Positions 23,353 through 44,611 of a DNA stretch of 64,000 bases are shown one piece after another; the first letter of the stretch is position 1; each line of letters opens with the position of its first letter. The position numbers and the translations under genes are program-made. Below the pieces are notes generated by a model. The model was not told where the DNA came from and made no database searches. It was given only the letters and a program-made list of their open reading frames with translations. Where the stretch lies: the NCBI GenBank assembly GCA_022451485.1, contig JAKUQS010000006.1:23648-87647 (forward strand), given 5' to 3'. The DNA is from Gammaproteobacteria bacterium. Lineage in GTDB: Bacteria; Pseudomonadota; Gammaproteobacteria; Arenicellales; UBA868.

Positions 23353-24330
23353 TCAGGCTTTCAACAAGCGAAGCATTGACGCGGCGTCACTCACGCGGAC
23401 ATCAAACCCTGCCTCAACGTTCATGTGGATGATGACTCCCCTTTCAACATACATGGCATAACGCCGGGAGCGCATACCGAGTCCGGACCCCCTCAAATCC
23501 AGTGTTAGGCCCATCCCTCTAGTAAAGCACCCACTCCCATCTGCCAACATTGAAAGCTTGTCCGAGATGTTAGTCGCCCGCGCCCACGCATCCATTACAT
23601 AGGCATCGTTCACGGCAATACATACGACATGATCGACGCCGGTGGCGCACATTTCCGCTGCTGCAGCTATATACCCTGGTAGGTGCTCGCGATTACATAT
23701 AGGTGTAAACGCACCGGGCACTCCGCAAACCACCACTCGTTTTTCTGCAAACCATTCGCCAGAACCGAACGTCAATGAAGTGCCGAATTGTATTTGTTGA
23801 AGCGGCGCATCTGGAACACAATCACCAATTAATCGCCTCGCAGAGAAATAACTTATCAACCCTTCCAGTGCACCCTCAAAGTCATCTGAATTGAACCACT
23901 TCACCAGATCTCCCGCCGGCCCTAGAATCCAAAACACCGCTGGACTTTCAACCGGATCGTGCCCCGAAATACCTCTGAACATTCGGGAAACTGAGTCGTC
24001 AGGATCGAACAACACCTCAATGACACTATCAAGGCGTTCCGACAACTCCTGATTAACTACGAACCCTGCTTGAATGATGACAACCACTCGCGCGTTTCGC
24101 GAACCCAATCGAGAAACAAGCCCTGCCAATTTGTTAACTCTTGCGAGATCCCGGCGTAATGCACCAAAGGTGATGCAACAGAAGACAACATGCTGGCCTG
24201 CAAAATCCTCTGATCGGACAGACAGACCATAATGATTCCGCAAGCAAAACGGTTTGATCTTTTTCACAACTTTGTCGCTACGCAAAACACGTGCATCCTG
24301 CGCACCGCTACTCAGAGGAGTTCGATGCAC
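23353..24330 (-). CDS. Prx5-type peroxiredoxin domain, C-terminal ~165 aa, preceded in-frame by a ~160-aa thioredoxin-fold-like region
   Basis: C-terminal VVCGVPGAFTPICNREHLPGY...VVCIAVNDAYVMDAWA matches the PRDX5/redoxin active-site region. The N-terminal half (GQHVVFCCITFGALRRD...) looks like a second degenerate AhpC/TSA-like domain. The true start is uncertain. Confidence 0.6.
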   Translation of the reverse strand: MHRTPLSSGAQDARVLRSDKVVKKIKPFCLRNHYGLSVRSEDFAGQHVVFCCITFGALRRDLARVNKLAGLVSRLGSRNARVVVIIQAGFVVNQELSERLDSVIEVLFDPDDSVSRMFRGISGHDPVESPAVFWILGPAGDLVKWFNSDDFEGALEGLISYFSARRLIGDCVPDAPLQQIQFGTSLTFGSGEWFAEKRVVVCGVPGAFTPICNREHLPGYIAAAAEMCATGVDHVVCIAVNDAYVMDAWARATNISDKLSMLADGSGCFTRGMGLTLDLRGSGLGMRSRRYAMYVERGVIIHMNVEAGFDVRVSDAASMLRLLKA

Positions 24331-24752
24331 CGTGTAAGCGCGTCCCGAACAGCCGCTTCACATGCCTCCCGTTCCACACTCATCTCTCCATCGTCGGCGA
24401 GGGCTGGCATGTTATTGGAACGTCGCATCAATGGGGCTCGACCAAACTGACTTTTTCGAATGCCAAAGGCAGGCAATTCCAAACGCACTAACACTAGTAT
24501 CTCGTCACCCTCAACGCGACGATCTCTAATTTCATGCCGCCACTTCTCCCCATAATGTTGTTCTAACCATTGAATGGGATCATCCAAGTGATCTCGGGTT
24601 TCTTCGGTTAGCCGAACTACCTTTACTTCGGCACCTTTACCATGGGGATCTGCGCGTGGAGACTCAATATTGACGCTCGCATAGAGACTTTCTAGCTGCT
24701 CTCGATTCGCATCCAGCAGTTCAGAGAAAGTATTTCCAGAATTTGAGCTCAT
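24312..24752 (-). CDS. Hypothetical protein whose C-terminal ~80 aa form a domain also found fused to two HyuB proteins in this window
   Basis: YGEKWRHEIRDRRVEGDEILVLVRLELPAFGIRKSQFGRA...EREACEAAVRDALTRCIELL aligns with residues ~60-135 of the HyuB at 28326 and with the last ~79 aa of the HyuB at 39554. Track ORF starts at TTG 24767 (overlapping the upstream hydrolase stop). ATG at 24752 is the alternative start. Confidence 0.5.
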   Translation of the reverse strand: MSSNSGNTFSELLDANREQLESLYASVNIESPRADPHGKGAEVKVVRLTEETRDHLDDPIQWLEQHYGEKWRHEIRDRRVEGDEILVLVRLELPAFGIRKSQFGRAPLMRRSNNMPALADDGEMSVEREACEAAVRDALTRCIELL

Positions 24753-24763
24753 GCGCGCTCTCT

Positions 24764-25486
24764 TCAAAAATCAACACGCGTTGGCAATGTTCCTTGCCAC
24801 CATTGCCGGAATTCGTTGTCAGCGCGGCCTTCCATTCCCCCAGCTACCACGAGTGCCTCGAGATGTTCTTGTATCTCCTGTTCAACCTTAACGTCACAGT
24901 ATTTCGAATCCATGTCAAAGAGATTGGCGTGATGGGGACCCTCGGCACGATCACCAACACCCTCTCGGCAAACAATAGTCCGAAAGCCGTATTGTAAGGA
25001 ATCAACTGCAGAGGCCCTCACACACCCACTAGTGGTCGCCCCGGTGATAATGACAGTATCGACACCCTGCCCATGAAAATAACGATCCAATTCGGTACCA
25101 AAAAATGCACTAGCGTACTTCTTAATGATGACCTCATCACCTTTTACGGGAGCAATTCTCGAATCAATTTCTACCCACTTAGAGCCTTTAACAAGCAATG
25201 ACAATGCCGGAATCTTCTCTATGAATATGCCCGCGTCATTAAAGTCTGGGGCATAAGCTACCGTTGTGTAGACCACCGGGAAACATCCTTTTCTGAATGC
25301 CGCCAGTAATCGAGCGGTAACGGCAACCTGATCATCAAAATTCCCGCCCAATGGTGATGTTGGATCGGTAAATCCGTTGCTGAAATCGACGATTAATAAT
25401 GCCGGTTTCTCTCCAAAGCCAGACCTACTGCCTAATCCTTTCTCTGCGTAGTCAGCACGGGTTGGTTCTTCCCAATCGTGTTTCAT
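24764..25486 (-). CDS. Isochorismatase-family cysteine hydrolase (paralog of 18349-18996)
   Basis: ALLIVDFSNGFTD and IITGATTSGCVRASAVDSLQYGFRTIV are closely parallel to the 18349 gene. ATG at 25486 (MKHDWEE) is preferred, which removes the overlap with the upstream membrane-protein gene. Confidence 0.65.
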   Translation of the reverse strand: MKHDWEEPTRADYAEKGLGSRSGFGEKPALLIVDFSNGFTDPTSPLGGNFDDQVAVTARLLAAFRKGCFPVVYTTVAYAPDFNDAGIFIEKIPALSLLVKGSKWVEIDSRIAPVKGDEVIIKKYASAFFGTELDRYFHGQGVDTVIITGATTSGCVRASAVDSLQYGFRTIVCREGVGDRAEGPHHANLFDMDSKYCDVKVEQEIQEHLEALVVAGGMEGRADNEFRQWWQGTLPTRVDF

Positions 25487-25512
25487 GGATAACCCAGTTA
25501 TTGAACAATGTC

Positions 25513-26058
25513 TTAACGACGTCCGACCACTCCGGGGGGCGTCCAACCGCGGCGCCAACCCACTCTGTAAGCCCGAACTACTCGGTGCAGCAAATAAAAC
25601 AAAATCGCCATTAACATCAAAACAAACACAGACAGCAAGCGACTCCCGAACACGGCACTGATGATCTGACCATCATTCATTAGGTGCTCGCTCAGCATTT
25701 CAACAGCCTGAATAGTCGCCCCGGCACACAAGATGACAGCAGCCAAAATGGCTATCTGCAGGGTATCGAAAACCAGTTCTTGCGCACTTGTTTCTGAAAA
25801 CTGGTCAAATATATTCTTTTTAAATGACTGCCGATGGGAGATTGCAAAACTAATGATCGCAACCACTGATGCAAACCAGAAGAGAATATTGGAAAAATGG
25901 ATTCTTGGGATATGCTCCATTAAATACTGCTCTACCGGTTGGTAAAACAGTAAAAAGAGAACAATAACGACAACAATACCCAATCCAATCCAGGATCCGG
26001 GCCGTTGCCACCGGTTTTGTAAGGATTCCATCGCTGATCCATACTCCAGAGGTTCCAC
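25513..26058 (-). CDS. Small integral membrane protein (about 4 TM), unknown function
   Basis: Hydrophobic segments IGLGIVVVIVLFLLF, FWFASVVAIISFAI, LQIAILAAVILCAGATIQAV and LLSVFVLMLMAILFYLL. GTG start with AAGAGG 6 nt upstream. It shares an A-x-L-x-AGA-x-x-QAV motif with the protein at 37903-38370. Confidence 0.5.
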   Translation of the reverse strand: MEPLEYGSAMESLQNRWQRPGSWIGLGIVVVIVLFLLFYQPVEQYLMEHIPRIHFSNILFWFASVVAIISFAISHRQSFKKNIFDQFSETSAQELVFDTLQIAILAAVILCAGATIQAVEMLSEHLMNDGQIISAVFGSRLLSVFVLMLMAILFYLLHRVVRAYRVGWRRGWTPPGVVGRR

Positions 26059-26265: not shown

Positions 26266-28329
26266 ATGTCTGCCCGCCTAGGGATTGATGTTGGAGGGAC
26301 GTTTACGAACTTATCCCTTCTGGATGAGCGTTCAGGGAACATATATGCGGCAAAGATTCCGTCGACACTTGGCGATCCCACGTCAAGGATCTTTTCTGGA
26401 CTGGATGAACTCCTCGAAATCAGCGACGTGTCGGCCGCAGACATCGCGACGGTTGTTAACAGCACGTCGTTACCCTCGGCGGTCGTTGCTGAACGAAATG
26501 GCTCGAAAGTCGCTCTACTTACCACTCAAGGCTTTGAACACATACTTCTTCTAGGAGGGGTATCGGAGGATTCTGCCTCATCCAATCCCCATACGGCCAT
26601 CCAGGCAGAACCACTGGCGGATCTTGCGCTGACGCGCGGTATTCCGGAACGTATGTCATCCGACGGACAAATCCTACAGCCACTGGACGACTCGGTTGCG
26701 TCGGCTCTGATCCAGGAGATTATTCACCTAGGGGCGGAACATATAGCCGTATCACTACTTCATTCCTACGCTAATCCTTTACACGAACGCATTCTCCGTG
26801 ACCTGATATCAAACATTGCTCCGGATTTACCCGTGACACTATCGAGCGAATTACGACGGGTCTTTCATGAGTTTGAGCGCACGTCTCTCGCAGTGATGAA
26901 CGCCTATGTTCAGCACAGCATGATCACCCATTTAAAAAGTCTAGGGGACAAATTCGCAGACCTGTCTGCACCCCCGCATATATTTGTAGCACGATCGGAT
27001 GGCGGGCTCATGGGTTTAGAGCGCGCGCAACGCACTCCGATCTTCGCTGCGCTGTCCAGTTCTGCATGCGCCGCAGGGGCCGCCCACAGCATTGCCTCTT
27101 CCGCTAACTGTGGCGATACGATCGCGTTAGACTGGGGAGGAAACACAACAGAAATTACACTGCTCCATCAGACTCTACGGCCACCTTTACGAGACGGATC
27201 GCTCGGTCCCTATTGCCTTGGACTTCCAACACTGGGCACGCGACACATTGGAGGCGGCGCAGGCTCTGTTATTGATATCCCAATAACAGGAAAGATTCGT
27301 ATAAAGAGCGACACCTATAATGGCCCTGGTCCGGCGTGTTACGGACTTGGCGGCACCGTCGCAACACTAACCGATGCCAATGTGATCTTGGGTCGACTAC
27401 CCTGCGAATTCCTGGCCGGGCGTATTCCAATCGATATCGAGGCGGCCGAGACAGCGGTGTCCGTCGCGGGAAAAGCGCTTGGGATGAATCCTGTAGAGGC
27501 AGCCCAAGCGATAATTGATGTTGCGAACGAGAAAGTTTACGGCGCCATACGTCAGCTCATGTCAGAACGACATTCGGATGACAAAGAATTCAACTTGATT
27601 GCGTTTGGGGGCGCTGGCCCAATGCACGCGAACGCCATAGGAATCCTCGGAAATATGTTCCCTGTTGTAATACCAGCCCAACCAGGCATGGTATCGGCTC
27701 ACGGCGCCCTATTCGCATCACAACGCCATGAGCTGGCCCAGACCATACTCAAGCCGGTTACTCATATAACCGGACAACTGCTCGATGATGCACTGGACAA
27801 GCTACAAACTCACGTCAGTACACAATTGCAAGAAGATGGATCAACTAACGACCAGTACACATTCCTGGCAGAGGCTGATCTTCGTTACTGTGGCGATAGC
27901 AGCGAGATTACACTCCCCTTAAATGTTGTCGACCCAAGTGCGGACCTTTCTCAACTAGAAGCACAGTTTATGCGGGCCCATCAGAACTTGTGCGGATTTG
28001 AGATGGATTTACCAGTTGAGATCGTCAACTTGCGAATCATCGGGTATACACAATCTCAAGTAACGACATCAAACGCCAAACATCAAGCCCGAAGGTCAGA
28101 ATCCACCCCACCCAATCAATGCCGAACCTATTTTGATGGGAGTTTCCTCGACACCAAGGTCTATGAGCGCGCAGATTTGATGCCCGATGAGTCCGTTTCG
28201 GGCCCGGCTGTAATCCTCCAATACGATGCCACCACCCTAATTCACCCAGGCCATGTCGCCCATGTTACTCCCGAGGGCACGCTTTTGATTAAACCTCAAA
28301 CACCGACGGATAACGCGACACTATCGTGA
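26266..28329 (+). CDS. hyuA: Divergent hydantoinase/oxoprolinase A-type subunit (pair 3)
   Basis: LGIDVGGTFTNLSLLDE and overall collinearity with HyuA. The otherwise invariant HGTTVATN segment is replaced by NSTSLPSAVVAERNGSKV. AAGGAGA RBS precedes the ATG at 26266. Confidence 0.7.
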   Translation: MSARLGIDVGGTFTNLSLLDERSGNIYAAKIPSTLGDPTSRIFSGLDELLEISDVSAADIATVVNSTSLPSAVVAERNGSKVALLTTQGFEHILLLGGVSEDSASSNPHTAIQAEPLADLALTRGIPERMSSDGQILQPLDDSVASALIQEIIHLGAEHIAVSLLHSYANPLHERILRDLISNIAPDLPVTLSSELRRVFHEFERTSLAVMNAYVQHSMITHLKSLGDKFADLSAPPHIFVARSDGGLMGLERAQRTPIFAALSSSACAAGAAHSIASSANCGDTIALDWGGNTTEITLLHQTLRPPLRDGSLGPYCLGLPTLGTRHIGGGAGSVIDIPITGKIRIKSDTYNGPGPACYGLGGTVATLTDANVILGRLPCEFLAGRIPIDIEAAETAVSVAGKALGMNPVEAAQAIIDVANEKVYGAIRQLMSERHSDDKEFNLIAFGGAGPMHANAIGILGNMFPVVIPAQPGMVSAHGALFASQRHELAQTILKPVTHITGQLLDDALDKLQTHVSTQLQEDGSTNDQYTFLAEADLRYCGDSSEITLPLNVVDPSADLSQLEAQFMRAHQNLCGFEMDLPVEIVNLRIIGYTQSQVTTSNAKHQARRSESTPPNQCRTYFDGSFLDTKVYERADLMPDESVSGPAVILQYDATTLIHPGHVAHVTPEGTLLIKPQTPTDNATLS

Positions 28330-30617
28330 AGAAACCCACCCTTTCCCTGGATGAACTCGCGGCCGCCAATCAAAGCGAGTTTGATCAATTATTTGCAACA
28401 AGGATGGCGCTCAGCCCCCCGATCATCACCGATGGCGTTGCTCAAGCGCCTATACCAGCCCACCAAATAGCAAACGATACTGACAATGATGCGCCTTCTG
28501 TCGGACCACATATTGCTACCTTGCTGACAAACACTTACGCCAATGGCTGGTCATATGAAATTGTTGAACACGAGGTGGGGCCAAGAGACGTCCGAGTACT
28601 TTGTCGTCTAACAGCGATGGACCAAACTCGAATGCAGTTTGGCACGGCCGTTAACGATGGAAATATCGGAATCGCACTTCAACGAGCAACGGATGATGCG
28701 CTCGCCCGTTGTCATGCTGATCTGGCCCCAGAGACGCACGCTGACTTTGTCTCTGCCCACGGACATCAACGAACACACAAGGTAGCCGGGCCAACCAGCA
28801 CGCTAAGCCAAAGCGAGCAGATCTCCAAAGCTATAAAAGAAAATACCCGCGCTGGAGACGACATTGAAATCTCGCTGCCTCATATTGTGGAGACTGCGTT
28901 GACGTGCGCACGACGAGAAATGGACACTCTTCTTTTTGGTAGAGCCATGTCCTCTGGAATCCGCCTCCAGCGGGACGCCGGCACCCTGATCGCGGATCCC
29001 AACGGGTGTTTGCTGGTTGGGAATACCGAAACCGATTTACCCAAACTGTTACGGGAATCCATGTCTGATCTCGCTCCTGGGGATGTCATCCTACACAGTG
29101 ACCCATATAGCGCCGGGGGGGCTGGCGGGCACTTGAACGACTGGTGCATCGTAACTCCCATCTTTTTAGAGAGCCGACTTGTGGGATTTAGCTCGGCCTA
29201 CGGACATATGAGTGATGTCGGCAGTGAAGCACTTGGCAGTAACCCGGCGACCGCACATTCTATTTTTGGCGAAGGCCTGCGTATTCCACCCATTAAGCTA
29301 TACAAGAACGGCATCCTAAATCACGAATCGCTTGCAATTCTGACGAGCAATACCCGGACACCCGTCGCAAACCATCACGATCTACTGGCACTGGTAGCGG
29401 CCACAAGAATAGGTGAAGCCCGAGTGCTTCAATTGTGCGCGCGCTTTGGTGAACACAGCTATATCCGGGCAAGTGAAATACTGCAAGAACAGACACATCA
29501 GATGATGCGCAAAATCATATCCAAATACTTTCCCATTGAACCCCAATCATTTCACGACTACATAGATGATGACGGCTGTGAACACGGACCTTTTCGACTA
29601 AAAGTGACCATCTGGCGTGAAGGTGACAAAGCTTATGTAGATTGGACGGGCACGGATGCCCAAGCCCTCGGACCTATCAATCTTCATCTTCAGGAATCAA
29701 CTTTACAGAGTCTTGTGGGTCGCTACCTACTTCGTCGTGTCGACCCGGAGATGGAACCATGCGGCAGCGGCAACTCGTTATTTGACATCACACTTCCCAA
29801 AGGCTCACTCATTAAAGCCGCGTTTCCTGCAGCCTTGGGTAGCCGTAGACACGTGCTAGGTCGGTTACGGGATGTTTTAAATGGTGTATTCAGCCACTCA
29901 GCCGATTCGCTCGTCACAGCAGCAGGCGAATCCAGTCAGAGCCTTTTTACTTTTGTACCAGGTGATGATGCTCGAGGGCTACCGCTGTCTGAACCCCACT
30001 TTGGCGCCCTGCCAGCGCGCGCAGCTTCAGACGGAATTGATGGACCGAGCTGGGCACACAGCAGGAAACTATATTCTGTTGAGGCCATGGAACATCGGAC
30101 ACCAGTAAGAGTTGACTCCCGACGGTGTATTCCAGATTCCGGTGGTGCGGGAACCTTTCGGGGTGGTAACAGCGTAGCAACGATCTACCAATTTACAGCG
30201 CCCGGAGCGCTGTCGATTCAGGATGATCGCCAGAATGGCAGGCCGTGGGGTGTTTTTGGAGGCCAAGCTGGGTCTTGTTCTGAAAAGTCTTTAACCACGA
30301 AAAACGGTGAACAGCGAACAATCGCGGCTAAAGCGGACCGTGTATCGGTTTACCCAGGTGATAAACTGCATTATGTGGAGCCCGGTACTGGAGGCTGGGG
30401 AGATCCGCTGAGACGGTCCGTGGAAGCTGTCCAAAAAGACGTCGCACGCGGATTAACCACCATTGTGTCAGCCAAAAACGACTATGGGGTAATCATCGAT
30501 TCAGACACAGGGGCGGTTCAGGCGGAGGAAACCGACGCATTACGTCGACGTGTTATGGGTACACCTGGAAAACGCTTACATTTCGACTTTGGAAAGAAAG
30601 CAGCTCCCGAACCCTAA
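28326..30617 (+). CDS. hyuB: Hydantoinase B/oxoprolinase family subunit with ~190-aa N-terminal extension carrying the recurrent ~80-aa domain (pair 3)
   Basis: HyuB core begins near IVETALTCARREMDTLLFGRAMSSGIR and includes the SDPYSAGGAGGHLNDW motif. N-terminal residues ~55-135 (NGWSYEIVEHEVGPRDVRVLCRLTAMDQTRMQFGTAVNDGNIGIALQRATDDALARCHADL) are homologous to the protein at 24312-24752. GTG start overlaps the hyuA stop (GTGA). Confidence 0.75.
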   Translation: MKKPTLSLDELAAANQSEFDQLFATRMALSPPIITDGVAQAPIPAHQIANDTDNDAPSVGPHIATLLTNTYANGWSYEIVEHEVGPRDVRVLCRLTAMDQTRMQFGTAVNDGNIGIALQRATDDALARCHADLAPETHADFVSAHGHQRTHKVAGPTSTLSQSEQISKAIKENTRAGDDIEISLPHIVETALTCARREMDTLLFGRAMSSGIRLQRDAGTLIADPNGCLLVGNTETDLPKLLRESMSDLAPGDVILHSDPYSAGGAGGHLNDWCIVTPIFLESRLVGFSSAYGHMSDVGSEALGSNPATAHSIFGEGLRIPPIKLYKNGILNHESLAILTSNTRTPVANHHDLLALVAATRIGEARVLQLCARFGEHSYIRASEILQEQTHQMMRKIISKYFPIEPQSFHDYIDDDGCEHGPFRLKVTIWREGDKAYVDWTGTDAQALGPINLHLQESTLQSLVGRYLLRRVDPEMEPCGSGNSLFDITLPKGSLIKAAFPAALGSRRHVLGRLRDVLNGVFSHSADSLVTAAGESSQSLFTFVPGDDARGLPLSEPHFGALPARAASDGIDGPSWAHSRKLYSVEAMEHRTPVRVDSRRCIPDSGGAGTFRGGNSVATIYQFTAPGALSIQDDRQNGRPWGVFGGQAGSCSEKSLTTKNGEQRTIAAKADRVSVYPGDKLHYVEPGTGGWGDPLRRSVEAVQKDVARGLTTIVSAKNDYGVIIDSDTGAVQAEETDALRRRVMGTPGKRLHFDFGKKAAPEP

Positions 30618-30718: not shown

Positions 30719-33283
30719 ATGTCCATCGAAAGCCTAATCACTATCGTCCTAATAGCAATTGTTGCGATCGCTATTTTCTATATCATTTCTATCTGGGTCT
30801 ACAAACGGGCACCAGCCAATATGGGCTTCATCCGTACCGGTTTCGGTGGCACACGTGTCTGCCTCGGGCAAGGCGCCATTGTTCTACCTGTTTTCCACGA
30901 AGTCTCATGGGTGTCGCTGGAAACTATTAAATTGATCGTCGGTCGCGCGCGTGATCAGGCCATTTTGACGCACGACAATATCCGCATTGACGTCGTTGCT
31001 GAACTCTATACTCACGTTGGGCACACTGCCGACTCCCTTCTCATTGCAAGCAGAAGTCTGGGCCAAAAGACATTCGATCCCGACACGGTTCGTAGTCTCC
31101 TTGAAGCAAAAATCATCAGCGCATTGCGGAGCTACGCGGCGACAAAAGATCTAGCGGAACTACATGAAAATCGAGACACCTTCGCACGCGACATAAAATC
31201 ACAGGTTATCGAAAGCTTCAGCGCAAATGGTCTTGTCCTGGAAGAAGTCACCATTGTCTCGATGGAGCAAACGGGAAAAGAGTACTTCAAGACCGATAAT
31301 GTCTTCGATGCAGAAGGCCTACGAATCATTACCGAGATCACATCACGGGCGAAACGGGACGTCCACGAAACCGAAAAACGAACCAGTGTGGCGATTCGAC
31401 AGAAGGAATTAGAGACTCAACTCGAATTGCTCGAAATCGAACGTCAAGAGGCGTTTGCTCGTTCGGTACAAGATCGGGCCATCTCCAACGAACAAGCCCT
31501 TCATGTCGGTGAAAAGCAACGTTACGTCCTCGATCAAAAACTATCTGTTGAACAAAAGGAGATCGAAAACGAACGTCTGGTTGAACAACTCAGAACTGAG
31601 CGTGATGTAGCCATCATCGAAGAGTCACAAAAACGTGAATCTTCAGAAATTGAGAAAGGCAAACTGATCGAGCAACAACGACGAGATCGTGAGATCGTAC
31701 TCATTGAAAAAGCGAAACAGGAGGAATTAGCCGAAATCACACGCAAACTCGATCTTGACAAAGCAGAAAAGGATCGGCAGATAGAGCTCGTTGAGAAAAC
31801 GAAACAGGAGGAGCTCGCTCAAATCACACGTGAGGTGTCATTGGATGCGGCCCAAAAGGATAAACAAATACGATTGATCGCCAACGAACAAGAGCGGGAA
31901 GAAGCCGAAATTGAACGCCAGACGGTCATCACCGCTCGCGAGGAAAGCGCCCGCCTTGAACGGAGTAAAGTTGCAGAACAGGCGGAAATCGCCATCAGTC
32001 AGGAAAAACTCAAAACCCGATTAGCTCTTCTCGATGTTAATAAACAGGATGCCCTTTCCACCTCCTCTCAGGAGAAAGACGTTGCGGAAGCTCAGGCTAC
32101 CCTGTTGAGTGAAAAACAGCGATTCCTGCTCGAAGAGAAATGGAAAGTTGAACAAGAGGAAATCAACAAAGAGTTGGAACTCGAGAAAGCCCAAATCGCG
32201 AAAGATACGTCGATTCTAAGTGAGTCCCAAAAACGGGAGACGGCAGAGGTCCAACGTTCCCTGGCGCGGCAAAGTGAGGAGCGAAATCGGGAAATCGCTT
32301 TATCCGCAAAAGATGCTGACCTTGAATTGGCGGCTGCAAAACGCCTAGAGGCCACGGCATCCCGACAGCAGGCCGAACATAATGCCGACTCAGTCCGACA
32401 TATCGCTGACGCGGAACGTCAAAAGATCATCGACCTGATAGAGGCTGAAAATAACGCGGATACACGCCGTGTAGAAGAGGAAAATAACGCCGAAATCACG
32501 CGAATGCATATGCTTGCGCAGGCCGATGCGAGGAAAGAAGCGGCTGAGCGTGAAGCCACAGCAACTCTCACCCGCGCCCAGGCGACCAGTGATGCACAAC
32601 AAATCTCCGCCATTGGGATCGAGAAGGAAGCAGCCGCTAAAGGGCGGGCCGAAATGGAGATCGAACAACTGAGAGTTGCGAACACACAACGCATGCTGGA
32701 AGCAGAAGCAAGTGGAATTGAGGCAAAAGCAGATGCTTTGAAGAAATATAACGATGCGGCTACCTTTCTAGAACTATCGAAAATGCATATAGAAGCTGAA
32801 CGCGATGTTCGTAGTGATCAGGCTAAAGCGATGGGTAATGCGCTACAGGGCGCCCAAATAAGAATGTATGGTGGCAGTGATGACGGAACCATAGACAACA
32901 TCCGCGGCCTGTTTACCTCCGGTTTTGGGATTGGAGAGGCACTTGAAGGCCTCGCTCAGTCCCTACCCGAAGGGCTACGCCAGCGATTTGCTCAGAATGG
33001 CGTACGCGGCCTTTTTGGAACGCCAAATGGCGCAGGTCGCTTCCAGGAAGCAGTCGCTGCTGTGGGCACATTACTCCAGGGCACTTTAAAGACAAAACGT
33101 GAGCGCGAAGCCACAACTTTTCAGGACGCGGTGCAAATATTGGAAGAGGCCGCAGGCGCAGACACAGCACAGTTAGAAGCTGTTGCAACGCTTTCCCAAT
33201 TTAACCAAGACGGCGTTTTTAACGAAGTCCCATTTGAAACTGTATGGAGTCTGGTCCTCGCCACATCAAAGGCGGTAAATTAA
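30719..33283 (+). CDS. Flotillin / SPFH (band-7) family protein with extended coiled-coil region
   Basis: N-terminal TM (IVLIAIVAIAIFYIISIWVY), SPFH core (GFIRTGFGGTRVCLGQGAIVLPVFHEVSWVSLETIKL...) and about 450 aa of E/A/Q/K/R-rich heptad-like sequence. At 854 aa it is well beyond the typical ~500-550 aa of YqiK/flotillin homologs. Confidence 0.75.
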   Translation: MSIESLITIVLIAIVAIAIFYIISIWVYKRAPANMGFIRTGFGGTRVCLGQGAIVLPVFHEVSWVSLETIKLIVGRARDQAILTHDNIRIDVVAELYTHVGHTADSLLIASRSLGQKTFDPDTVRSLLEAKIISALRSYAATKDLAELHENRDTFARDIKSQVIESFSANGLVLEEVTIVSMEQTGKEYFKTDNVFDAEGLRIITEITSRAKRDVHETEKRTSVAIRQKELETQLELLEIERQEAFARSVQDRAISNEQALHVGEKQRYVLDQKLSVEQKEIENERLVEQLRTERDVAIIEESQKRESSEIEKGKLIEQQRRDREIVLIEKAKQEELAEITRKLDLDKAEKDRQIELVEKTKQEELAQITREVSLDAAQKDKQIRLIANEQEREEAEIERQTVITAREESARLERSKVAEQAEIAISQEKLKTRLALLDVNKQDALSTSSQEKDVAEAQATLLSEKQRFLLEEKWKVEQEEINKELELEKAQIAKDTSILSESQKRETAEVQRSLARQSEERNREIALSAKDADLELAAAKRLEATASRQQAEHNADSVRHIADAERQKIIDLIEAENNADTRRVEEENNAEITRMHMLAQADARKEAAEREATATLTRAQATSDAQQISAIGIEKEAAAKGRAEMEIEQLRVANTQRMLEAEASGIEAKADALKKYNDAATFLELSKMHIEAERDVRSDQAKAMGNALQGAQIRMYGGSDDGTIDNIRGLFTSGFGIGEALEGLAQSLPEGLRQRFAQNGVRGLFGTPNGAGRFQEAVAAVGTLLQGTLKTKREREATTFQDAVQILEEAAGADTAQLEAVATLSQFNQDGVFNEVPFETVWSLVLATSKAVN
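31714..31887 (+). repeat. In-frame tandem duplication, 2 x 87 nt, inside the flotillin coiled-coil
   Basis: Protein units IEKAKQEELAEITRKLDLDKAEKDRQIELV and EKTKQEELAQITREVSLDAAQKDKQIRLI. Nucleotide units aaacaggaggaattagccgaaatcacacg.. and aaacaggaggagctcgctcaaatcacacg.. are about 75% identical. Confidence 0.6.
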
Positions 33284-33307
33284 CCACGCTTACCATAGCC
33301 ACTAGTT

Positions 33308-34390: not shown

Positions 34391-34510
34391 GGCCAAAGTT
34401 ACGTAACACGAGACTGCTGCTCCTCGTCGTACAGATAGCAGTGAGTGGCCTCCACGCTTCCCTGTGAAAAACGACTCGTTTGATCAATCCAATCTCGGTC
34501 CGAAACGTCG

Positions 34511-36351: not shown

Positions 36352-36508
36352 TATACTACCTTGCCAATTTGTAACCCTTCACCCACTTATTGCGTACAGC
36401 TACATACGCCTAGCCACAGCGTGCGCCGTCCACAACAATCCTATGTTGGAAACTTACCCTGGTGACCGAATACGCCGACCACCAGGGTAATAAACCACAA
36501 AACGCAGA

Positions 36509-37792: not shown

Positions 37793-37902
37793 AGCTCTGT
37801 TCCTCCTTGTAATTTTAATTACCCCAAAAAGTCTTAAACAGTATGTTTCAATCCAGTGGGGCCTCCCGGTAACATTTGCGCATTATGCGCCCCTGCTATC
37901 CA

Positions 37903-38370
37903 CTATGCCTTAACCGGTCGAATTAATTTCAACAACCAAAAGATGATACAAAAAACACCGGTAATCACTACTAATGCAATGATCGTTCCTACTTGTTTAC
38001 CAAATCCCCCATCAAAAGTGTAGCCTGTCTGCAGCAGATAAACACAGGCATTTTGAACCGCCTGTAATGCCGCTCCTGCAGACAAAAGAACCGCTGTGAA
38101 GGTTGATCCCCGTAACGACGTTAACACCATCGACTCCACACTGCCCTGTCCCCTGATATACGTTTTATACGCGCTCCAGTGAAACGCACAAAACCCTAGA
38201 AGCCCAATGATCACTGTCACCCAGAAAACACTGTTTTGAAAGGTAAATCCATTCAAAACAATATTTACCAAAGCCTCAAACGGAGGAAAAAAGTAGAGGA
38301 AGGTTAACGCCAATATGAGAAGGAGAAACCCTACCAGAGTCCAAAACCACTGCCAGCCCGTCATTACCAC
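37903..38370 (-). CDS. Small integral membrane protein (about 4 TM), paralog of 25513-26058
   Basis: 155 aa. TAVLLSAGAALQAVQNACVYLL parallels LQIAILAAVILCAGATIQAVEMLSEHL in the 25513 protein, and both have a similar hydrophobic C-terminal helix. Confidence 0.5.
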   Translation of the reverse strand: MVMTGWQWFWTLVGFLLLILALTFLYFFPPFEALVNIVLNGFTFQNSVFWVTVIIGLLGFCAFHWSAYKTYIRGQGSVESMVLTSLRGSTFTAVLLSAGAALQAVQNACVYLLQTGYTFDGGFGKQVGTIIALVVITGVFCIIFWLLKLIRPVKA

Positions 38371-38440
38371 TCACACCTCATTGCAAAAGATGAAGACGAT
38401 CACTAATCATATAGTGTCTTTATGCGTTCAAACAGCCCGC

Positions 38441-39493
38441 TTAGGGTGCCACGCTGACCAGAAGGATGCCATAGATAACAAGGAATAGCACATCCCGGAC
38501 GCCACCCGCCCCCTGTTTCCCTGACCCACGAGTTCCAATCAGGATCATCACCTCAATCAAGGTAAATATTAGCCCCAGGAAGAAAAATGGCCAGATAGAG
38601 TCCCACCAGGAGCTGTCTGGAAGCACCTCATACGCTTGGACTGTTCTCCAAACCAGCAACAACAAGGGCATTAGGGTGAAATAAACATAGGCAACAAGAA
38701 ATCGATACCGAGTGGCCCTGCGATCTACCATCCAAAATACGACGAAGAAACCGACGATATTCACCACATCCCAGAATAATCCGCGGTACGTCGCCCCATC
38801 ACCGTGCTGGACAACATTTAGAAAGGCCAGAAAAAGAAAAAATACCATCGCGTCACAAAAAGCCCATTCGCGAAGCGTTTCACCCGAGCGTTTAATCGAC
38901 CATTCCCGAGTCGCCTTGTCGAAAAGCAGCACCAGGGCCACGCCCAGCGTCGCTGGATAGAGCAAGTGAAGAATCAGCCGGTATTGATCGGCGGGTTCAA
39001 CGGCTAGCCAATTCAGTAACAACAGCCCGACAAACAGACACAATAAACCCAACATACCCGCCCCAGCGGGAGTCTGCGTCGAGTTCATGGGTTGGTCTAC
39101 TCCACTCGCGGAAGCAGAATTAATCGGTGCTTTCTTGGGCCAACGTACAAACGCGCCAATCACAAAAGCCAAAAGAGCGCCCACCACAGCGACACCCATA
39201 ATGGTTAAGAACACGTCCGATCGGGCATCTGCCCGCCAAGTGGACTGGACAGCGACGGCATCTGAATACGACTGTACGATTAGCGTTATGCCCCCTATCA
39301 CGATAATCAGCAATGCTATGATTGCCAGCAGATATTCCATCCAAAGCACCCGTTCACCCTGCACGGAAGTATCGTCGCTACCCACCTCTGGGGAAGTACG
39401 ATGCCTCATGAGGAGATAGGCAACAAACGCCAACACAGCAATCACGGCCAGGCCACCCATAACAAAAATAAATGCTAGTGATTGAGCTACCAT
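38441..39493 (-). CDS. Polytopic integral membrane protein (about 8-9 TM), unknown function
   Basis: 350 aa with multiple long hydrophobic segments and no recognisable family signature by eye. Lies directly downstream of hyuAB pair 4. Confidence 0.5.
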   Translation of the reverse strand: MVAQSLAFIFVMGGLAVIAVLAFVAYLLMRHRTSPEVGSDDTSVQGERVLWMEYLLAIIALLIIVIGGITLIVQSYSDAVAVQSTWRADARSDVFLTIMGVAVVGALLAFVIGAFVRWPKKAPINSASASGVDQPMNSTQTPAGAGMLGLLCLFVGLLLLNWLAVEPADQYRLILHLLYPATLGVALVLLFDKATREWSIKRSGETLREWAFCDAMVFFLFLAFLNVVQHGDGATYRGLFWDVVNIVGFFVVFWMVDRRATRYRFLVAYVYFTLMPLLLLVWRTVQAYEVLPDSSWWDSIWPFFFLGLIFTLIEVMILIGTRGSGKQGAGGVRDVLFLVIYGILLVSVAP

Positions 39494-39553
39494 TCGTTCC
39501 CCGACAATGTCTTAGTCGATGTCAATTCCACAGCAATCGGTGAAATAATCGAA

Positions 39554-41680
39554 TCATGACTTCTCGGCAATCAGTCGTTCCACGCACCGTTGGAAGCTCA
39601 TGTCACTCGCTGCCTGAAATGCAGCCCCTAACGATGCCCCAGGATCAGTTACCGCCGAGCCGGTCTCAGCAACATAGGAATGATTTGCTCGTAATTCGCC
39701 TCGGACTTCTGCAATGTTTCCTCGTTGAGAGTAGTAGACCACCTCAAAACTCCATTGGTCCCCTACAGTTGCACGTATTGCAGTAAGGGATTCCGACTTA
39801 TCGACCTTCGACAGAATCGCCTCACTAATGGCACTTGATGGGGGAGCAGGAGCTTGATCACGAAGTTCTTCGTTGCCGACAGGGGCCGGCGTTACCGAAA
39901 TCGCAACGTTGCTCGGTGCGTTTTCCATTTGCGACCGCAGACTATTTGTCGCCGTCTCGTCCACCTCTTCATTGACAACATCAATCACCACGCCATAGGC
40001 ATTACGCGCATGTTCAACAGTACAAAAATCATCTAAGACATCCCCGAGAACGTCCTCTGCGGGGCGTTCAAGTGGATTTCCGTAACCTCCCCCACATGGC
40101 GCATAAAATGCGTGAACATCGCCCGACTTAACTCGCAAACCAGAGAATTTTGCGGGCATACTCTGGACATCGCTCGGGTCATCAACATTAAAGACTTCGA
40201 CCTTACCAGTGGCTCCCGACCAGCCACCAAAAATACCCCATGGAACATCGTGGTGTCTTTCATTTTCATGCGTAATAAAACCATCTGTGAGAACACGTTG
40301 TGACTTGACCACGCCAATGCCCCCTCGATACCTTCCCGCCCCAGGCAGCACGTCGTCACGTAATTCGTAACGATCACAGATCATAGGAAGATGCATGCCA
40401 AGATCTTCCAATGGATTATTTCGTGTATTCGCCATCAAATTGTCGATACTGTCAGGACCATCCGATTGCGGACGACCTCCGTAGGCGCCCTCATTGACTT
40501 CCAGGAATACCCAGTAATCTCCAGACGGTCGAACCCCTGAATACGCCGCGAAAGACAAAGAGGCAGAACTACCAGCAATGATCTCGTTGGGTAGCACAGG
40601 TGCGAGTGCTTTATAAATCAGATCAATTGCTCGATTCACTTGAGTAAAACGGGCTTCTGCAGCTGCAGGATATTCTGGGTTATAGATCGATCCCTTTGGC
40701 GCTATCACCTCGATGGGTCGAAATGAACCTTCATTCGAGGGGACAGTAATCTCAGAAGTTTCTGCGTCCAACAGTAAAGAACGAATAGCGCAGTAACAGC
40801 CCACTTTGGTGGAGCCTTCAAAGGGCACATTGAAACCGGTTTCAACCTGAGCCGAGGACCCCGTCAGATCTACTTGTATAGAATCACCCATAATTCGAAC
40901 ACACACCTTAATGGGTAACCGGACATCTCGATTTTTCCCGTCATCATCGAGAAAACCTTCTGCGCGGTACTCGCCATCTGGAATCTCAGCGATTCGTTGC
41001 CGCACCACTCGTTCCGTATAATCCATCAATTGGCGAGTCGCCGAGATTATCGTGTCCTTACCATAACGATCCATCAATTCTTGAAAACGGCGAACACCCA
41101 GCCGGGCTGAAGCTATTTGGGCCTCAATGTCACTTTGCAATTGTGTTGCAGCTCGGCTGTTCCGACCTAAAAACTCCCAAAGCCCTTCGTTGCGTGAGCC
41201 TTTCTCATAAAGTTTGGTGCCCGCAAATAGCATTCCCTCTGCAAAAACATCAGGAATGTCAATAATCAAGCCCGGGGTGGCCGCTCCGATATCAAGATGA
41301 TGTGCCGTATTAGCGCCGAAACCCACCAGTTCACCGCCATAAAAACAAGGAATAACTATTCCTATATCGGGTGAATGACTGGCTCCAAGGTAAGGATGAT
41401 TGTGAATCACAACATCACCTTCATTCCACTCTCCGCCTTGAAGGGATTCCTCAATCCCTCTCAAATATCCCGGCAGTGAACCAATATGAAGCGGCGTCGA
41501 TTCTGACTCACATAACGTGTTGAAATCAGTATCAAACAGCCCCGCTCCCAGATCTTGCGATTCGCGAATGATTGACGAAAACGACATCCGATACAGGATG
41601 TGACCCATCTCTTCAGCTATGGTGTCAAGTGCGCCACTGATGACTTGCAGCGTAATCGGATCTAATTCTTGCGAGGACAT
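39554..41680 (-). CDS. hyuB: Hydantoinase B/oxoprolinase family subunit with ~130-aa C-terminal extension carrying the recurrent ~80-aa domain (pair 4)
   Basis: DPITLQVISGALDTIAEEMGHILYRMSFSSIIRESQD, the HNHPYLGASHSPD variant motif and GGGYGNPLERP. After the usual C-terminus (NAYGVVIDV) comes a Pro/Ala/Ser-rich linker, then GDQWSFEVVYYSQRGNIAEVRGELRANHSYVAETGSAV...ASLGAAFQAASDMSFQRCVERL, which is homologous to the 24312 protein. Confidence 0.8.
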   Translation of the reverse strand: MSSQELDPITLQVISGALDTIAEEMGHILYRMSFSSIIRESQDLGAGLFDTDFNTLCESESTPLHIGSLPGYLRGIEESLQGGEWNEGDVVIHNHPYLGASHSPDIGIVIPCFYGGELVGFGANTAHHLDIGAATPGLIIDIPDVFAEGMLFAGTKLYEKGSRNEGLWEFLGRNSRAATQLQSDIEAQIASARLGVRRFQELMDRYGKDTIISATRQLMDYTERVVRQRIAEIPDGEYRAEGFLDDDGKNRDVRLPIKVCVRIMGDSIQVDLTGSSAQVETGFNVPFEGSTKVGCYCAIRSLLLDAETSEITVPSNEGSFRPIEVIAPKGSIYNPEYPAAAEARFTQVNRAIDLIYKALAPVLPNEIIAGSSASLSFAAYSGVRPSGDYWVFLEVNEGAYGGRPQSDGPDSIDNLMANTRNNPLEDLGMHLPMICDRYELRDDVLPGAGRYRGGIGVVKSQRVLTDGFITHENERHHDVPWGIFGGWSGATGKVEVFNVDDPSDVQSMPAKFSGLRVKSGDVHAFYAPCGGGYGNPLERPAEDVLGDVLDDFCTVEHARNAYGVVIDVVNEEVDETATNSLRSQMENAPSNVAISVTPAPVGNEELRDQAPAPPSSAISEAILSKVDKSESLTAIRATVGDQWSFEVVYYSQRGNIAEVRGELRANHSYVAETGSAVTDPGASLGAAFQAASDMSFQRCVERLIAEKS

Positions 41681-41699
41681 AAGTTATAAATTCATTTTC

Positions 41700-43781
41700 T
41701 CAATGGGAGAGCCGGCTTTCGATGGTCAGGTTTCCAAATTGACCTACATTGGCGGTGTAATCGGGTGGAATCAAAATCGTTGAATTGTGTTGGACCACCA
41801 CCGCCGGTCCAGAAATTACATGACCACCAAACAATTGACTCCGATCATAACGTGGTGTTGGGTAAGAATTTCCGTCATCAAACACTGTCTCTTGAGTGTA
41901 CAGAATTGCTGTTGCTACCGACTCTTTACCGGCTGTTGCAACTTCCGGGACCCGCAGTGGCGTTACATGTTGAACGCCTATCACTCGTAGCGTAATGAGT
42001 TCCACCTCACCGTCTCTAAATGCATAGCCATAGTCCAGCTCATGCTGCTGATGGAAACGATCAATGACTTCCACCATGGAAGATTCTGTTACCTGATCCG
42101 CTTCAATAAGAGCGCGTAATTCGAACCCTTGCCCGTGATATCGACATTCCGCGATTCTCTGAAAGTGCTGTTCAGAAACCGGAACACCATCACCTTCAAG
42201 ATCTTTTCGACACGCCTCTAAAAGTTCTGACAAAACACGATTGATTTTCGTCAGGTTTTCGTGCGTGATGTCGGATAAGGAAGCGATCACTGACCGTGCG
42301 TGCTCATACTGCATATCAGTTTGCAATAAACCCATAGCCGCAGTAATACCGGGAGCGACTGGAACGATGACATTCTTTGCCGACACCGCCTCCGCAAGGG
42401 CAACACCGTGCAGCGGACCTGCCCCACCGAACGGGATTAGGGAATAGTCCCTTGGGTCAACACCACGGGCGACTGAATTAGATCTAATGGCAAGCGCCAT
42501 ATTAGAGTTTACCAACCGAATGATCCCTAAAGCTGCATCTGTCGTTGAGATCCCTAGTGGCCGCGCTATCTTGTTCTCGATCGCCTGATCCGCCAGATCT
42601 TTATCTAAGGGAAGATCTCCACCCAACATCTTATCCGGATCCAGCCGGCCCAAAGAAACCTGCGCATCTGTAACTGTTGGCTCAACGCCACCACGCCCAT
42701 AACACGCCGGCCCTGGGTCCGCACCGGCAGAACGCGGCCCAACATGAAACCCGCCGGCCGAATCGATATAGGCAATAGATCCTCCACCCGCCCCGATAGT
42801 AACCAGATCAATCATAGGAATTAATACAGGATGCCCACTGACATAGGTATCCCGTGGATTCATTATCTTGATTTGACCGTCTGTGATGGTGCTGATATCA
42901 GCAGATGTACCGCCGATATCTACGGTAATGATATTCTGGGTGTTACACGCTACTGCTTCCGACTTCCCACCGATGACACCGCCCGCTGGCCCAGACATCA
43001 GCATCGTCACAGCACGCTGAGAACAGGTCTCTACTGTTGCTATGCCGCCATTCGACTGAATAATTCGCAAATTGGCATTAAAGCCCTCGCGGTTAAGCTT
43101 ATCTTTTAAGTTATTGAGATAAAACGACGTTCTTGGTCCAACAAACCCGTTCATTGCCGCTGTCGAAAATCGTTCGTACTCACGTAAGACGTTCGCGACA
43201 TCAGAGGACGCACAAACAAAAGCGTCCGGCATTTCCTTTTCGACAATCGCTTTAGCACGCCGCTCGTGTGAATCATTTAGGAAAGAAAACATGAACCCGA
43301 TCACAACAGACCGAATGCCTCGTTTTTTGAACAAAGCCACCGCTTCGAGAATCTCATCCTCGTTAAGAGGTGTTTCAATATCACCGGTCGGTGGCCGAAT
43401 GCACTCGGTCACCGCAATACGGTTGCGCCGTTTTATCAGAGGCCGACTCTGCCACGGAACATCAAAGTGCAAAGAGAAGTTATAAGGCCGTTTATGCCGC
43501 CCGATATGTAAAATATCTCGAAAATTTCGCGTTGTAATCATTCCAACTTCCGCGCCATCATTCTCAAGCGTCACGTTGGTAGCAACGGTTGTTCCGTGTA
43601 CGATAAGGTCGATGTCACTCGGTTTAACATCCGCTTGCTCACAGAGCTCCCGCAAACCAACCAACACTCCATCCGACTGGTCGCTCGGAGTACTTGCCAC
43701 TTTGTGGAAATAAACTCCGTGATCAGCCTCCAGGACCAGATCCGTATTGGTTCCGCCTACATCTACGCCTACCCTAGCCAT
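41700..43781 (-). CDS. hyuA: Hydantoinase/oxoprolinase A-type subunit (pair 4)
   Basis: MARVGVDVGGTNTDLVLE, IVHGTTVATNVTLENDGAEVGMITTRNFRDILHIGR and DIGGTSADISTI. ATG at 43781 with AAGGA 8 nt upstream; the ORF-track start at 43784 is TTG. Confidence 0.85.
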   Translation of the reverse strand: MARVGVDVGGTNTDLVLEADHGVYFHKVASTPSDQSDGVLVGLRELCEQADVKPSDIDLIVHGTTVATNVTLENDGAEVGMITTRNFRDILHIGRHKRPYNFSLHFDVPWQSRPLIKRRNRIAVTECIRPPTGDIETPLNEDEILEAVALFKKRGIRSVVIGFMFSFLNDSHERRAKAIVEKEMPDAFVCASSDVANVLREYERFSTAAMNGFVGPRTSFYLNNLKDKLNREGFNANLRIIQSNGGIATVETCSQRAVTMLMSGPAGGVIGGKSEAVACNTQNIITVDIGGTSADISTITDGQIKIMNPRDTYVSGHPVLIPMIDLVTIGAGGGSIAYIDSAGGFHVGPRSAGADPGPACYGRGGVEPTVTDAQVSLGRLDPDKMLGGDLPLDKDLADQAIENKIARPLGISTTDAALGIIRLVNSNMALAIRSNSVARGVDPRDYSLIPFGGAGPLHGVALAEAVSAKNVIVPVAPGITAAMGLLQTDMQYEHARSVIASLSDITHENLTKINRVLSELLEACRKDLEGDGVPVSEQHFQRIAECRYHGQGFELRALIEADQVTESSMVEVIDRFHQQHELDYGYAFRDGEVELITLRVIGVQHVTPLRVPEVATAGKESVATAILYTQETVFDDGNSYPTPRYDRSQLFGGHVISGPAVVVQHNSTILIPPDYTANVGQFGNLTIESRLSH

Positions 43782-43927
43782 CAATCATCCTTGTTAGAAT
43801 TGATCCTTGTTCATGAAATATGTCAAACGCCCTACCAATAACCCTCTCTAACTCACTCGTCAAGTCATTCGCCGATGATTCTCCCTGAAACTGCAGTTCA
43901 ACCAGCAAAACACTTTACCCGATACCT

Positions 43928-44611
43928 ATGACGAAACAGCAGATCGAGGACGATGCCATTAGCGCATTTAAGATCATTCAAAATGGTGGTATTGGGATTC
44001 TTCCCATGGATATTGGTTACTCATTGATTGGTGGGTCGTCTGACTCATTAATGCATATCTTCGAAACCAAAGGGCGCGCCAGTGGAAAGCTGAATGCGTT
44101 CGTTGGCGATCTCACGTCGGCCGATGAGCTACTTAATTTAACCCCTAAATCACGAGAACTTCTGCATTTACTCACCAAAACCTATGATCTACCGTTAGGG
44201 GCAATCGCTCCTTGTAACTTAAACCACCCCCTCCTAAAAGCCCTTGATAGCCGCACAAGGAGGATGAGCGTTAAAGCTGGGACCATTGTGCTCCTGGTTA
44301 ACGCCGGCCCGTTTCATGCCGCAATCAGTCGCCTCAGCCGCCAAACTGGCTATTTATTAATCGGTTCCTCTGCCAACCTCTCGAATTCAGGAACAAAATT
44401 CACGGTGGCCGATATTGAACCAGAAATATTAGATATTGCGGATATCATCATTGATCATGGGCTCCGCAAATACCACCTATATGGGCAATCATCGACGTTG
44501 TTAAACCTAGATACATTTGAAGTCGTCCGTCATGGGGCGTGCTTCGAACTGATCGCAGATGTCATCCAACGGCATTACGGTATAAAACTCACCGACCCGA
44601 AGGCAGGCTGA
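43928..44611 (+). CDS. Sua5/YciO/YrdC family protein (threonylcarbamoyl-adenylate-synthase-like fold)
   Basis: FKIIQNGGIGILPMDIGYSLIGGSSDSLMHIFETKGRASGKL matches the YrdC signature. Divergently transcribed from hyuAB pair 4. Confidence 0.55.
   Translation: MTKQQIEDDAISAFKIIQNGGIGILPMDIGYSLIGGSSDSLMHIFETKGRASGKLNAFVGDLTSADELLNLTPKSRELLHLLTKTYDLPLGAIAPCNLNHPLLKALDSRTRRMSVKAGTIVLLVNAGPFHAAISRLSRQTGYLLIGSSANLSNSGTKFTVADIEPEILDIADIIIDHGLRKYHLYGQSSTLLNLDTFEVVRHGACFELIADVIQRHYGIKLTDPKAG

Follow-up and report, generated by a model that had tools for sequence, protein, structure and literature searches.

The fused HyuB subunit and its tail

The stretch of DNA analysed here, called the window throughout, comprises 64,000 nucleotides of contig JAKUQS010000006.1 (positions 23,648 to 87,647, forward strand; assembly GCA_022451485.1) from a gammaproteobacterium of the Arenicellales. 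It contains six HyuA/HyuB pairs, a count made by a first-pass annotation from the letters alone and borne out by Pfam. The subject of this report is the hyuB gene of the fourth pair, whose product continues beyond the usual HyuB end into a linker and a small C-terminal domain that sequence profiles identify as a truncated ('mini') core of the Rad52/Rad22 family. The parts of the fused gene and its partner are listed below, with AlphaFold2 (AF2) predictions, their confidence as predicted local distance difference test (pLDDT), and ratios of non-synonymous to synonymous substitution rates (dN/dS).

39554..41680, minus strand: hyuB of pair 4, full open reading frame (ORF) of 708 amino acids in one open frame, with linker and mini-Rad52 domain at the C-terminus
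40073..41662, minus strand: Hydantoinase_B catalytic core, residues 7-536 (Pfam PF02538, 507 bits)
39920..40072, minus strand: HyuB C-terminal segment, residues 537-587, NAYGVVIDV plus the VDETATNSLRSQM helix (CapB model, AF2)
39803..39919, minus strand: Pro/Ala/Ser-rich linker, residues 588-626 (pLDDT below 50, dN/dS 0.75)
39557..39802, minus strand: mini-Rad52 domain, about residues 627-708 (82 amino acids)
41700..43784, minus strand: hyuA of pair 4, the partner gene (Pfam Hydantoinase_A, Hydant_A_N and Hydant_A_C; synteny kept at every related locus)

The 708 codons of the ORF are uninterrupted, and the PF02538 match covers model positions 1-519. This full-length match above threshold, together with the adjacent HyuA gene, places the protein in the hydantoinase B/oxoprolinase family. 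Against the NCBIfam equivalogs it scores 250 bits for CapB (caprolactamase-beta; cut-off 1000) and 102 bits for ApcD (acetophenone carboxylase delta; cut-off 1500), and no substrate can be assigned because these scores lie far below the cut-offs.

The Pro/Ala/Ser-rich linker described in the first-pass annotation is present, the stretch quoted there (APSNVAIS...SSAIS) corresponding to residues 588-618. However, the HyuB part does not end at NAYGVVIDV (560-568), as had been supposed, since the next 19 residues, VNEEVDETATNSLRSQMEN, form the usual HyuB C-terminal helix. The canonical end is placed at about residue 587: the CapB model reaches residue 582, the full-length AF2 model has a helix at 575-587, and this C-terminal segment, helix included, is also found in tail-less paralogues. 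The tail domain then consists of a helix (628-639), three strands (643-653, 656-665 and 668-677) and a long helix (684-707), with the stop codon directly after the last helix.

The same domain had been noticed at the N-terminus of the HyuB of pair 3 (from 28326) and in a free protein (24312-24752). A six-frame hmmsearch of the window recovers exactly these three copies, which agrees with the earlier statement that the domain recurs and that only the hyuB genes of pairs 3 and 4 carry it. The claimed homology of the tail to the free protein holds by an indirect route, through the 28326 N-terminus and the profile: by BLASTP the tail matches the 28326 N-terminus (4e-7) and the latter matches the free protein (4e-7), but tail and free protein give no direct match.

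An extension of this kind might be an artefact (frameshift, read-through or misassembly) or a non-functional relic, and there is some ground for suspicion, as the database keeps the tail as separate 'proteins' of 124-160 amino acids and one locus, L062, carries the domain in an ORF of its own. However, the short 'proteins' trace to a scaffold N-gap and contig ends. Those of 145 amino acids belong to L001, where the gene is split by the N-gap, and to L002, whose contig starts there, and in both the collinearity with the window is unbroken where HyuB passes into the linker. In JGI fragments with 63-68% identity, reading continues through NAYGVVID into the tail. The L062 gene is frameshifted throughout.

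An orthologue scan with the full-length protein as query and one genome per species found the in-frame C-terminal fusion in 47 other genomes of Alpha- and Gammaproteobacteria, and in most of them the stop falls 1-2 residues beyond the domain. The orthologous linkers measure 39-102 amino acids (median 58) and are composed of Ala (21%), Pro (20%), Arg (12%) and Ser (10%). With the closest genome, L003, as reference, dN/dS is 0.034 in the catalytic core, 0.75 in the linker and 0.20 in the domain, a pattern that points to constraint on the domain and almost none on its tether. The tail is a genuine domain under selection. The frameshift or sequencing error that the first-pass annotation had itself envisaged is contradicted by the collinear independent assemblies, the 47 in-frame fusions and the constraint on the domain; the artefact reading is effectively refuted and retains only a minute probability.

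The closest relatives of the window are deep-sea and marine metagenome-assembled genomes (MAGs) of Gammaproteobacteria, namely UWMA-0301 (90% identity), Arenicellales (89%) and Acidiferrobacteraceae (76-78%). In L062 (CAVOHL010000019.1, 9848-12165) the orthologous hyuB lies in many frames, with the domain in a 91-amino-acid ORF, and this break-up looks like the indel errors of a long-read MAG and not like a natural split gene.

Kinship of the domain with Rad52/Rad22 proteins

Pfam and NCBIfam scans of all three window copies gave nothing significant, PF04098 included, even at E<=10. A PDB sequence-profile search with a small alignment of the domain gave no meaningful match, and word-indexed searches, whether started from the tail or from the 28326 N-terminus, yielded near-identical fragments only. 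A profile of five sequences, searched exhaustively with HMMER, retrieved 324 proteins at E<=1e-3, from which the ankyrin/giant repeat proteins P0019 and P0128 were discarded as repeat-driven false positives. When 136 of the profile matches were tested, 57 proved to carry Pfam Rad52_Rad22 (best E 6.8e-18), 12 Mgm101p and 6 Hydantoinase_B. Ten matches of 190-240 amino acids, tested singly, all exceeded the Rad52_Rad22 gathering score. An hhalign comparison of nine HyuB-linked domains with these ten proteins gave a probability of 98% (E 1.4e-13, 72 columns), and the reciprocal hidden Markov model built from the ten bona fide proteins matches the tail, N-fused and free copies. The motifs RLNxAFGxxWSFEVVxH, EVxVLGxLxAxG, QFG and SLGxxLKxAxxDALKKCA are common to these domains and Rad52 proteins, occur in this order and can be recognised by eye.

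These comparisons identify the tail, at the level of sequence profiles, as a mini-Rad52 core descended from bacterial or phage Rad52-like annealing proteins. Some results count against this assignment. The target domain lies below every Pfam threshold, the best HyuB-fused relative, P0051, reaching 19.5 bits where the PF04098 gathering threshold is 20.3 bits. The AF2 model of the tail domain, made from a 12-sequence alignment, is confident (pLDDT 87.4) and shows a helix, three strands and a long helix; nevertheless, Foldseek against the PDB found no hit at E<=0.001 and left RAD52 outside the top 50, the top ranks being taken by folds of the double-stranded RNA-binding domain (dsRBD), HPF and Rv1738 type (E 3e-3 to 1e-1). 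The fold by itself thus lacks specificity, and it is the sequence profiles that carry the assignment to Rad52.

The dsRBD, HPF-YfiA and Rv1738 folds have the same alpha-beta-beta-beta-alpha order of secondary structure as the mini domain, but no sequence-profile link to it, and fewer residues can be aligned (~65-70 versus 87). This likeness is treated as convergent topology or very distant kinship. A dsRBD assignment was rejected, as sequence support is absent and only Rad52_Rad22 and Mgm101p were matched. Kinship to the small subunits of acetone and acetophenone carboxylases was likewise rejected, no similarity having been found.

The retrieved proteins include 52 that span the whole 121-position bacterial Rad52 model and about 100, among them all HyuB-linked and free forms, that match only positions ~30-112. 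This mini class does not have the first ~30 residues (alpha1 and the beta1-beta2 hairpin) nor the C-terminal GxGLxLY segment (91-98% gaps at its positions), and it retains alpha2, the three-stranded sheet and alpha3. In the model of the tail domain, the antiparallel three-stranded sheet has alpha3 packed across it and is preceded by alpha2, which packs with alpha3, with model helix 10-21 aligning with the RLNEAF helix of bona fide members; alpha1 and the hairpin are absent, and a disordered linker lies directly upstream. A survey of the superfamily of single-strand annealing proteins (SSAPs) lists five fold elements, with the sheet and alpha3 setting multimer curvature, and describes alpha1 and the beta1-beta2 hairpin as variable within the superfamily (PMC9870868).

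Compared with bacterial and phage Rad52-like SSAPs (PF04098, e.g., phage ul36 Sak), the mini domain has the same series of motifs, the same alpha2-sheet-alpha3 core and a buried Cys in alpha3. However, it measures ~80 amino acids and not ~200; alpha1, the hairpin, the GxGLxLY segment and the C-terminal tail are missing, and four of the six basic positions are largely lost from the C-fused domains. Furthermore, it is fused to or clustered with a metabolic enzyme, whereas those SSAPs accompany exonuclease or phage replication genes. The N-terminal domains of human RAD52 and yeast Mgm101 (PDB 5jrb, 8tkq, 9yi6) have the ring-interface elements that the mini domain retains, but identity is 9-14%, and the hairpin wedge, the C-lobe and the long partner-binding tail have no counterpart in it.

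In RAD52, residues R55, V63 and Y65 of the hairpin insert into the bases as a wedge, and K152, R153 and R156 of alpha3 hold the backbone of single-stranded DNA (ssDNA), while the ring interface draws on nearly the whole monomer, the beta1-beta2 hairpin and the C-lobe excepted (PMC13110880). In a profile alignment to RAD52 chains, R55 and Y65 fall in the missing N-terminal segment, bacterial K98, K106 and K107 correspond to K144, K152 and R153 of the human protein, and position 110 to R156. As the classes cannot be told apart by the net charge of the core, a position-specific analysis of basic residues was used in its place. The six basic positions are K/R in 76-100% of the 52 bona fide proteins and in 22, 0, 0, 4, 58 and 89% of 48 C-fused domains. 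The target reads A, E, V, Q, Q and R, with only the R153 equivalent retained, and has Q, Q and E at the equivalents of K144, K152 and R156. As a set, the conserved basic groove residues (R55, K152, R153, R156 and the flanking lysines) are thus not found in the target. The parts that form the interface are retained, whereas those of the DNA groove are mostly gone.

Fusion architectures and the gene cluster

The HyuB proteins that carry the domain fall into two subfamilies and three architectures:

HyuB4-type, domain at the C-terminus: the target, P0042, P0023, P0033, P0082, P0125 and P0089
HyuB4-type, domain at the N-terminus: P0027, P0037 and P0061
HyuB3/B2-type, domain at the N-terminus: P0018, P0095, P0051, P0059, P0060, P0024, P0036 and P0135

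Identity between the HyuB4 and HyuB3 cores is only ~28%. A neighbour-joining tree groups all HyuB4 orthologues that bear the tail into one clade, with the N-fused P0027 basal and outside. The tail-less HyuB4 orthologues (Pseudomonas, Halomonas, Marinobacterium and Kiloniellaceae), which are ~71-77% identical to the target, also fall outside, and the only exceptions inside the clade are one truncated gene and one frameshifted gene. This distribution is consistent with a single gain of the C-terminal fusion, which is old and vertically stable. Two diverged HyuB subfamilies, three architectures and the tree therefore indicate at least three separate fusion events, and the earlier proposal of independent N- and C-terminal fusions holds in this wider survey of HyuB homologues.

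P0031 (133 amino acids) matches positions 3-110 of the bacterial Rad52 model and also contains a domain near-identical to the C-fused tails of Alphaproteobacteria; an evolutionary intermediate and a chimeric assembly are both conceivable. Within the window, HyuB2 (21442-23334, plus strand) has no domain, and its homologues P0051, P0059, P0060 and P0095 (40-58% identical) carry it N-terminally. The HyuA2 ORF (19051-21423, plus strand) has ~108 residues ahead of its first Pfam domain, its start codon probably having been called too early.

The fused gene belongs to a cluster with the following further members:

24312..24752, minus strand: free mini-Rad52 protein, 146 amino acids, with N-terminal helix, linker and domain (homologues just upstream of hyuA in 35 loci)
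24764..25558, minus strand: isochorismatase-family amidohydrolase, upstream of the free copy (PF00857; syntenic, 43-59% identical)
25513..26058, minus strand: membrane protein with four transmembrane segments (4-TM), 181 amino acids, paralogue of the 155-amino-acid protein
26266..28329, plus strand: HyuA partner of pair 3 (syntenic, 39-44% identity in related loci)
28326..30617, plus strand: HyuB of pair 3, 763 amino acids, N-terminal copy (Pfam Hydantoinase_B 187-694; orthologues P0018 and others)
28326..28733, plus strand: N-terminal module of this HyuB, with helix (residues 6-25), linker and mini-Rad52 (~65-136)
30719..33283, plus strand: SPFH/flotillin-like protein, 854 amino acids, directly after hyuB3 (Pfam Band_7)
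33308-34390, plus strand: ATPase of an ABC importer between the fused pairs, with permeases at 34511-36351 (minus strand) and binding protein at 36509-37792 (minus strand) (SBP_bac_8, BPD_transp_1)
37903..38370, minus strand: 4-TM membrane protein, 155 amino acids, paralogue of the 181-amino-acid protein
38441..39493, minus strand: polytopic membrane protein, 350 amino acids, directly downstream of the fused hyuB

On the enzyme side, the set that recurs in other genomes consists of a divergent hyuA3-hyuB3 (domain N-terminal), the amidohydrolase, the free mini-Rad52 protein, hyuA4 and the tailed hyuB4. On the membrane side, it consists of the 181-amino-acid 4-TM, 350-amino-acid polytopic and 155-amino-acid 4-TM proteins and the ABC permeases with their binding protein. 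The window holds the whole set across 24312-43784, plus the SPFH gene common to the Acidiferrobacteraceae loci. No family match was found in Pfam or NCBIfam for the three membrane proteins, of which the two 4-TM paralogues are 27-31% identical to each other. The ABC importer is syntenic in tail-bearing loci (60-90% identity). Of the related loci, only L004 and L005, both gammaproteobacterial (Acidiferrobacteraceae), have kept the SPFH protein (77-78% identity), which is absent from the alphaproteobacterial clusters; its membership of the cluster is tentative.

Of the tail-bearing loci, 35 have the free copy and 30 have the N-fused one, and the downstream 350-amino-acid gene is found in 43 of 47. 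By comparison, the 30 tail-less orthologous loci have no match to the domain and none of the trio of copies, the three membrane genes or the amidohydrolase. The functional tie to HyuB suggested in the first-pass annotation is strengthened in this way, as free, N-fused and C-fused copies stand together in one conserved cluster in ~30-35 other genomes. Moreover, the free (residues ~8-25) and N-fused (6-25) forms have a common N-terminal helix motif, TFSELLDANREQLESLYA and SLDELAAANQSEFDQLFA, ahead of the variable linker. Its consensus, [ST][FL]x[DE][LM]Lxx[NS][KR]xx[FL][DE]x[LI][FY], is strongly conserved, occurring in the 35 free and 30 N-fused ORFs elsewhere, and is missing from the C-fused form. 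This element may be a docking helix.

At the edges of the cluster, a Redoxin/AhpC-TSA protein of 325 amino acids (23353-24330, minus strand) shares an overlap of 19 nucleotides with the free mini-Rad52 gene at the 3' end of the latter and has no homologue in any related locus. A gene of the Sua5/YciO/YrdC family (43928-44611, plus strand) is divergent from hyuA4 and is also adjacent in L003 (80% identical). Besides the six HyuA/HyuB pairs, the region 551-59307 of the window encodes a TRAP transporter (4404-7444), an N-formylglutamate amidohydrolase, a second isochorismatase-family protein (18349-18996), a dimethylformamidase-like protein (50649-52850), an MlrC-type peptidase, a TauD dioxygenase and beta-oxidation-type proteins. 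From its gene content, this region reads as a dense catabolic island for small nitrogenous compounds.

Possible roles of the mini-Rad52 domain

As indicated, the parts of the DNA-binding groove are lost and those of the ring interface kept, and self-association or docking in place of DNA annealing is therefore proposed. The mini-Rad52 would no longer anneal DNA; exapted as a module for oligomerisation or docking, it would bring several enzymes together in a complex that is possibly membrane-associated. To this reading we give a little less than an even chance. The three paralogous copies (the HyuB4 C-terminus, the HyuB3 N-terminus and the free 146-amino-acid protein) would co-assemble and thereby join two different HyuAB ATP-dependent cyclic-amide hydrolases. 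The complex would form probably beside the co-inherited membrane proteins and the ABC importer, and uptake and successive hydrolytic steps could thus be physically coupled. A narrower form of the proposal, which we hold more tentatively, is a nucleic-acid-independent ring or arc hub, in which three mini-Rad52 units on tethers would gather the two hydrolases, the amidohydrolase and the membrane proteins into a membrane-associated metabolon.

The HyuAB family offers a precedent for such a complex, with members that add small subunits and combine paralogous large ones. CapAB is an (ab)2 assembly, an A-B-B-A tetramer with a B-B dimer core; acetone carboxylase is (abg)2, with a gamma subunit added; and acetophenone carboxylase is (aa'bg)2+e, with two paralogous large subunits plus small ones (PMC8453981). 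The target has the same full-length core and adjacent HyuA as other members of the HyuB family (PF02538; CapB, N-methylhydantoinase small subunit), but characterised members and the tail-less orthologues do not have the tethered domain. The isochorismatase-family amidohydrolase near the target is also a feature of hydantoin-type pathways. The gamma subunit of acetone carboxylase and the small subunits of acetophenone carboxylase are likewise extra small subunits, comparable to the free 146-amino-acid version; here, however, the unit is usually tethered covalently by a long flexible linker.

Several observations weigh against the proposal of an assembly module. The full-length AF2 model has an overall pLDDT of 67.7, falls below 50 in linker and tail and contains no information on docking; the co-assembly is purely inferred. 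Four tail-bearing gammaproteobacterial loci have no membrane genes within 10 kb, although they still have a free-standing copy. The net charge of the core does not separate the mini class (median -1) from bona fide proteins (-2). Furthermore, the N-fused and free copies have K/R in 100% of sequences at two beta-strand positions, and the target has kept the R153 equivalent; some residual binding of nucleic acid may therefore remain.

Among the alternatives, the domain could be a membrane-docking tag that binds the cytoplasmic face of the 350-, 155- and 181-amino-acid proteins and anchors each HyuAB beside the importer without self-assembly. This is unlikely. In its favour, membrane genes occur at 43 of 47 tail-bearing loci and at none of the 30 tail-less ones, the 181-amino-acid gene adjoins the pair-3 operon, the 155-amino-acid gene comes after hyuB4, and in the gammaproteobacterial versions an SPFH/flotillin-like scaffold follows hyuB3. 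The four tail-bearing loci with a free copy and no nearby membrane genes argue against it, as do the retained elements, which are those of Rad52 self-association. Such docking is compatible with the assembly-module proposal and does not exclude it. A quite improbable alternative is that the domain folds onto its own HyuB or HyuA, at the active site or the A/B interface, and acts within the molecule as a regulator or stabiliser, gating the enzyme or replacing a gamma-like subunit. Related carboxylases do depend on small accessory subunits (PMC8453981), attachment at either terminus through long linkers would suit a domain whose target site lies on its own complex, and the free version could serve untagged pairs. 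However, the full-length AF2 model shows no confident docked pose, and the tail-less orthologues manage, at ~71-77% identity, with no such subunit nearby.

Finally, the domain might still bind single-stranded nucleic acid, for example its own operon mRNA or ssDNA, as a moonlighting regulator. Its homology to ssDNA-annealing proteins, the R153 equivalent in 89% of C-fused domains and the two invariably basic strand positions of the N-fused and free copies speak in favour of this role, and a plant RAD52-like protein is reported to function in RNA splicing (PMC4513849). Nevertheless, the wedge hairpin with the equivalents of R55, V63 and Y65 is missing, K144, K152 and R156 are replaced by uncharged or acidic residues in the target, the C-terminal lobe that walls the groove is missing, and the surrounding genes serve catabolism and transport only, none of them DNA metabolism. 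Binding of nucleic acid is accordingly regarded as very unlikely.

So far, annealing domains of the Rad52 type are known only from transactions of DNA or RNA. Within the library searched, no paper links Rad52 with hydantoinase, and the reviews of the Rad52 superfamily that were found do not mention enzyme fusions. A search for Rad52-like folds outside nucleic-acid roles returned nucleic-acid roles only, and a recent survey considers the Rad52 core fold 'probably unique to SSAPs' (PMC9870868). The fold family is thus a known one, its truncated form and non-DNA genomic setting being unreported.

The cluster presents a stripped-down Rad52 core under purifying selection in a purely catabolic setting. 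If the domain is a hub, this would be the first metabolic-scaffold role for the Rad52 fold and a new bacterial way of building multi-enzyme complexes, and it would provide a natural minimal Rad52 oligomerisation unit, useful for studying ring formation. A widespread uncharacterised proteobacterial pathway for cyclic-amide nitrogen compounds, found in soil and the deep sea and consisting of two HyuAB enzymes, an amidohydrolase, three membrane proteins and an ABC importer, would also come to light. More generally, the unannotated tails of common enzymes can conceal recognisable and unexpected domains.

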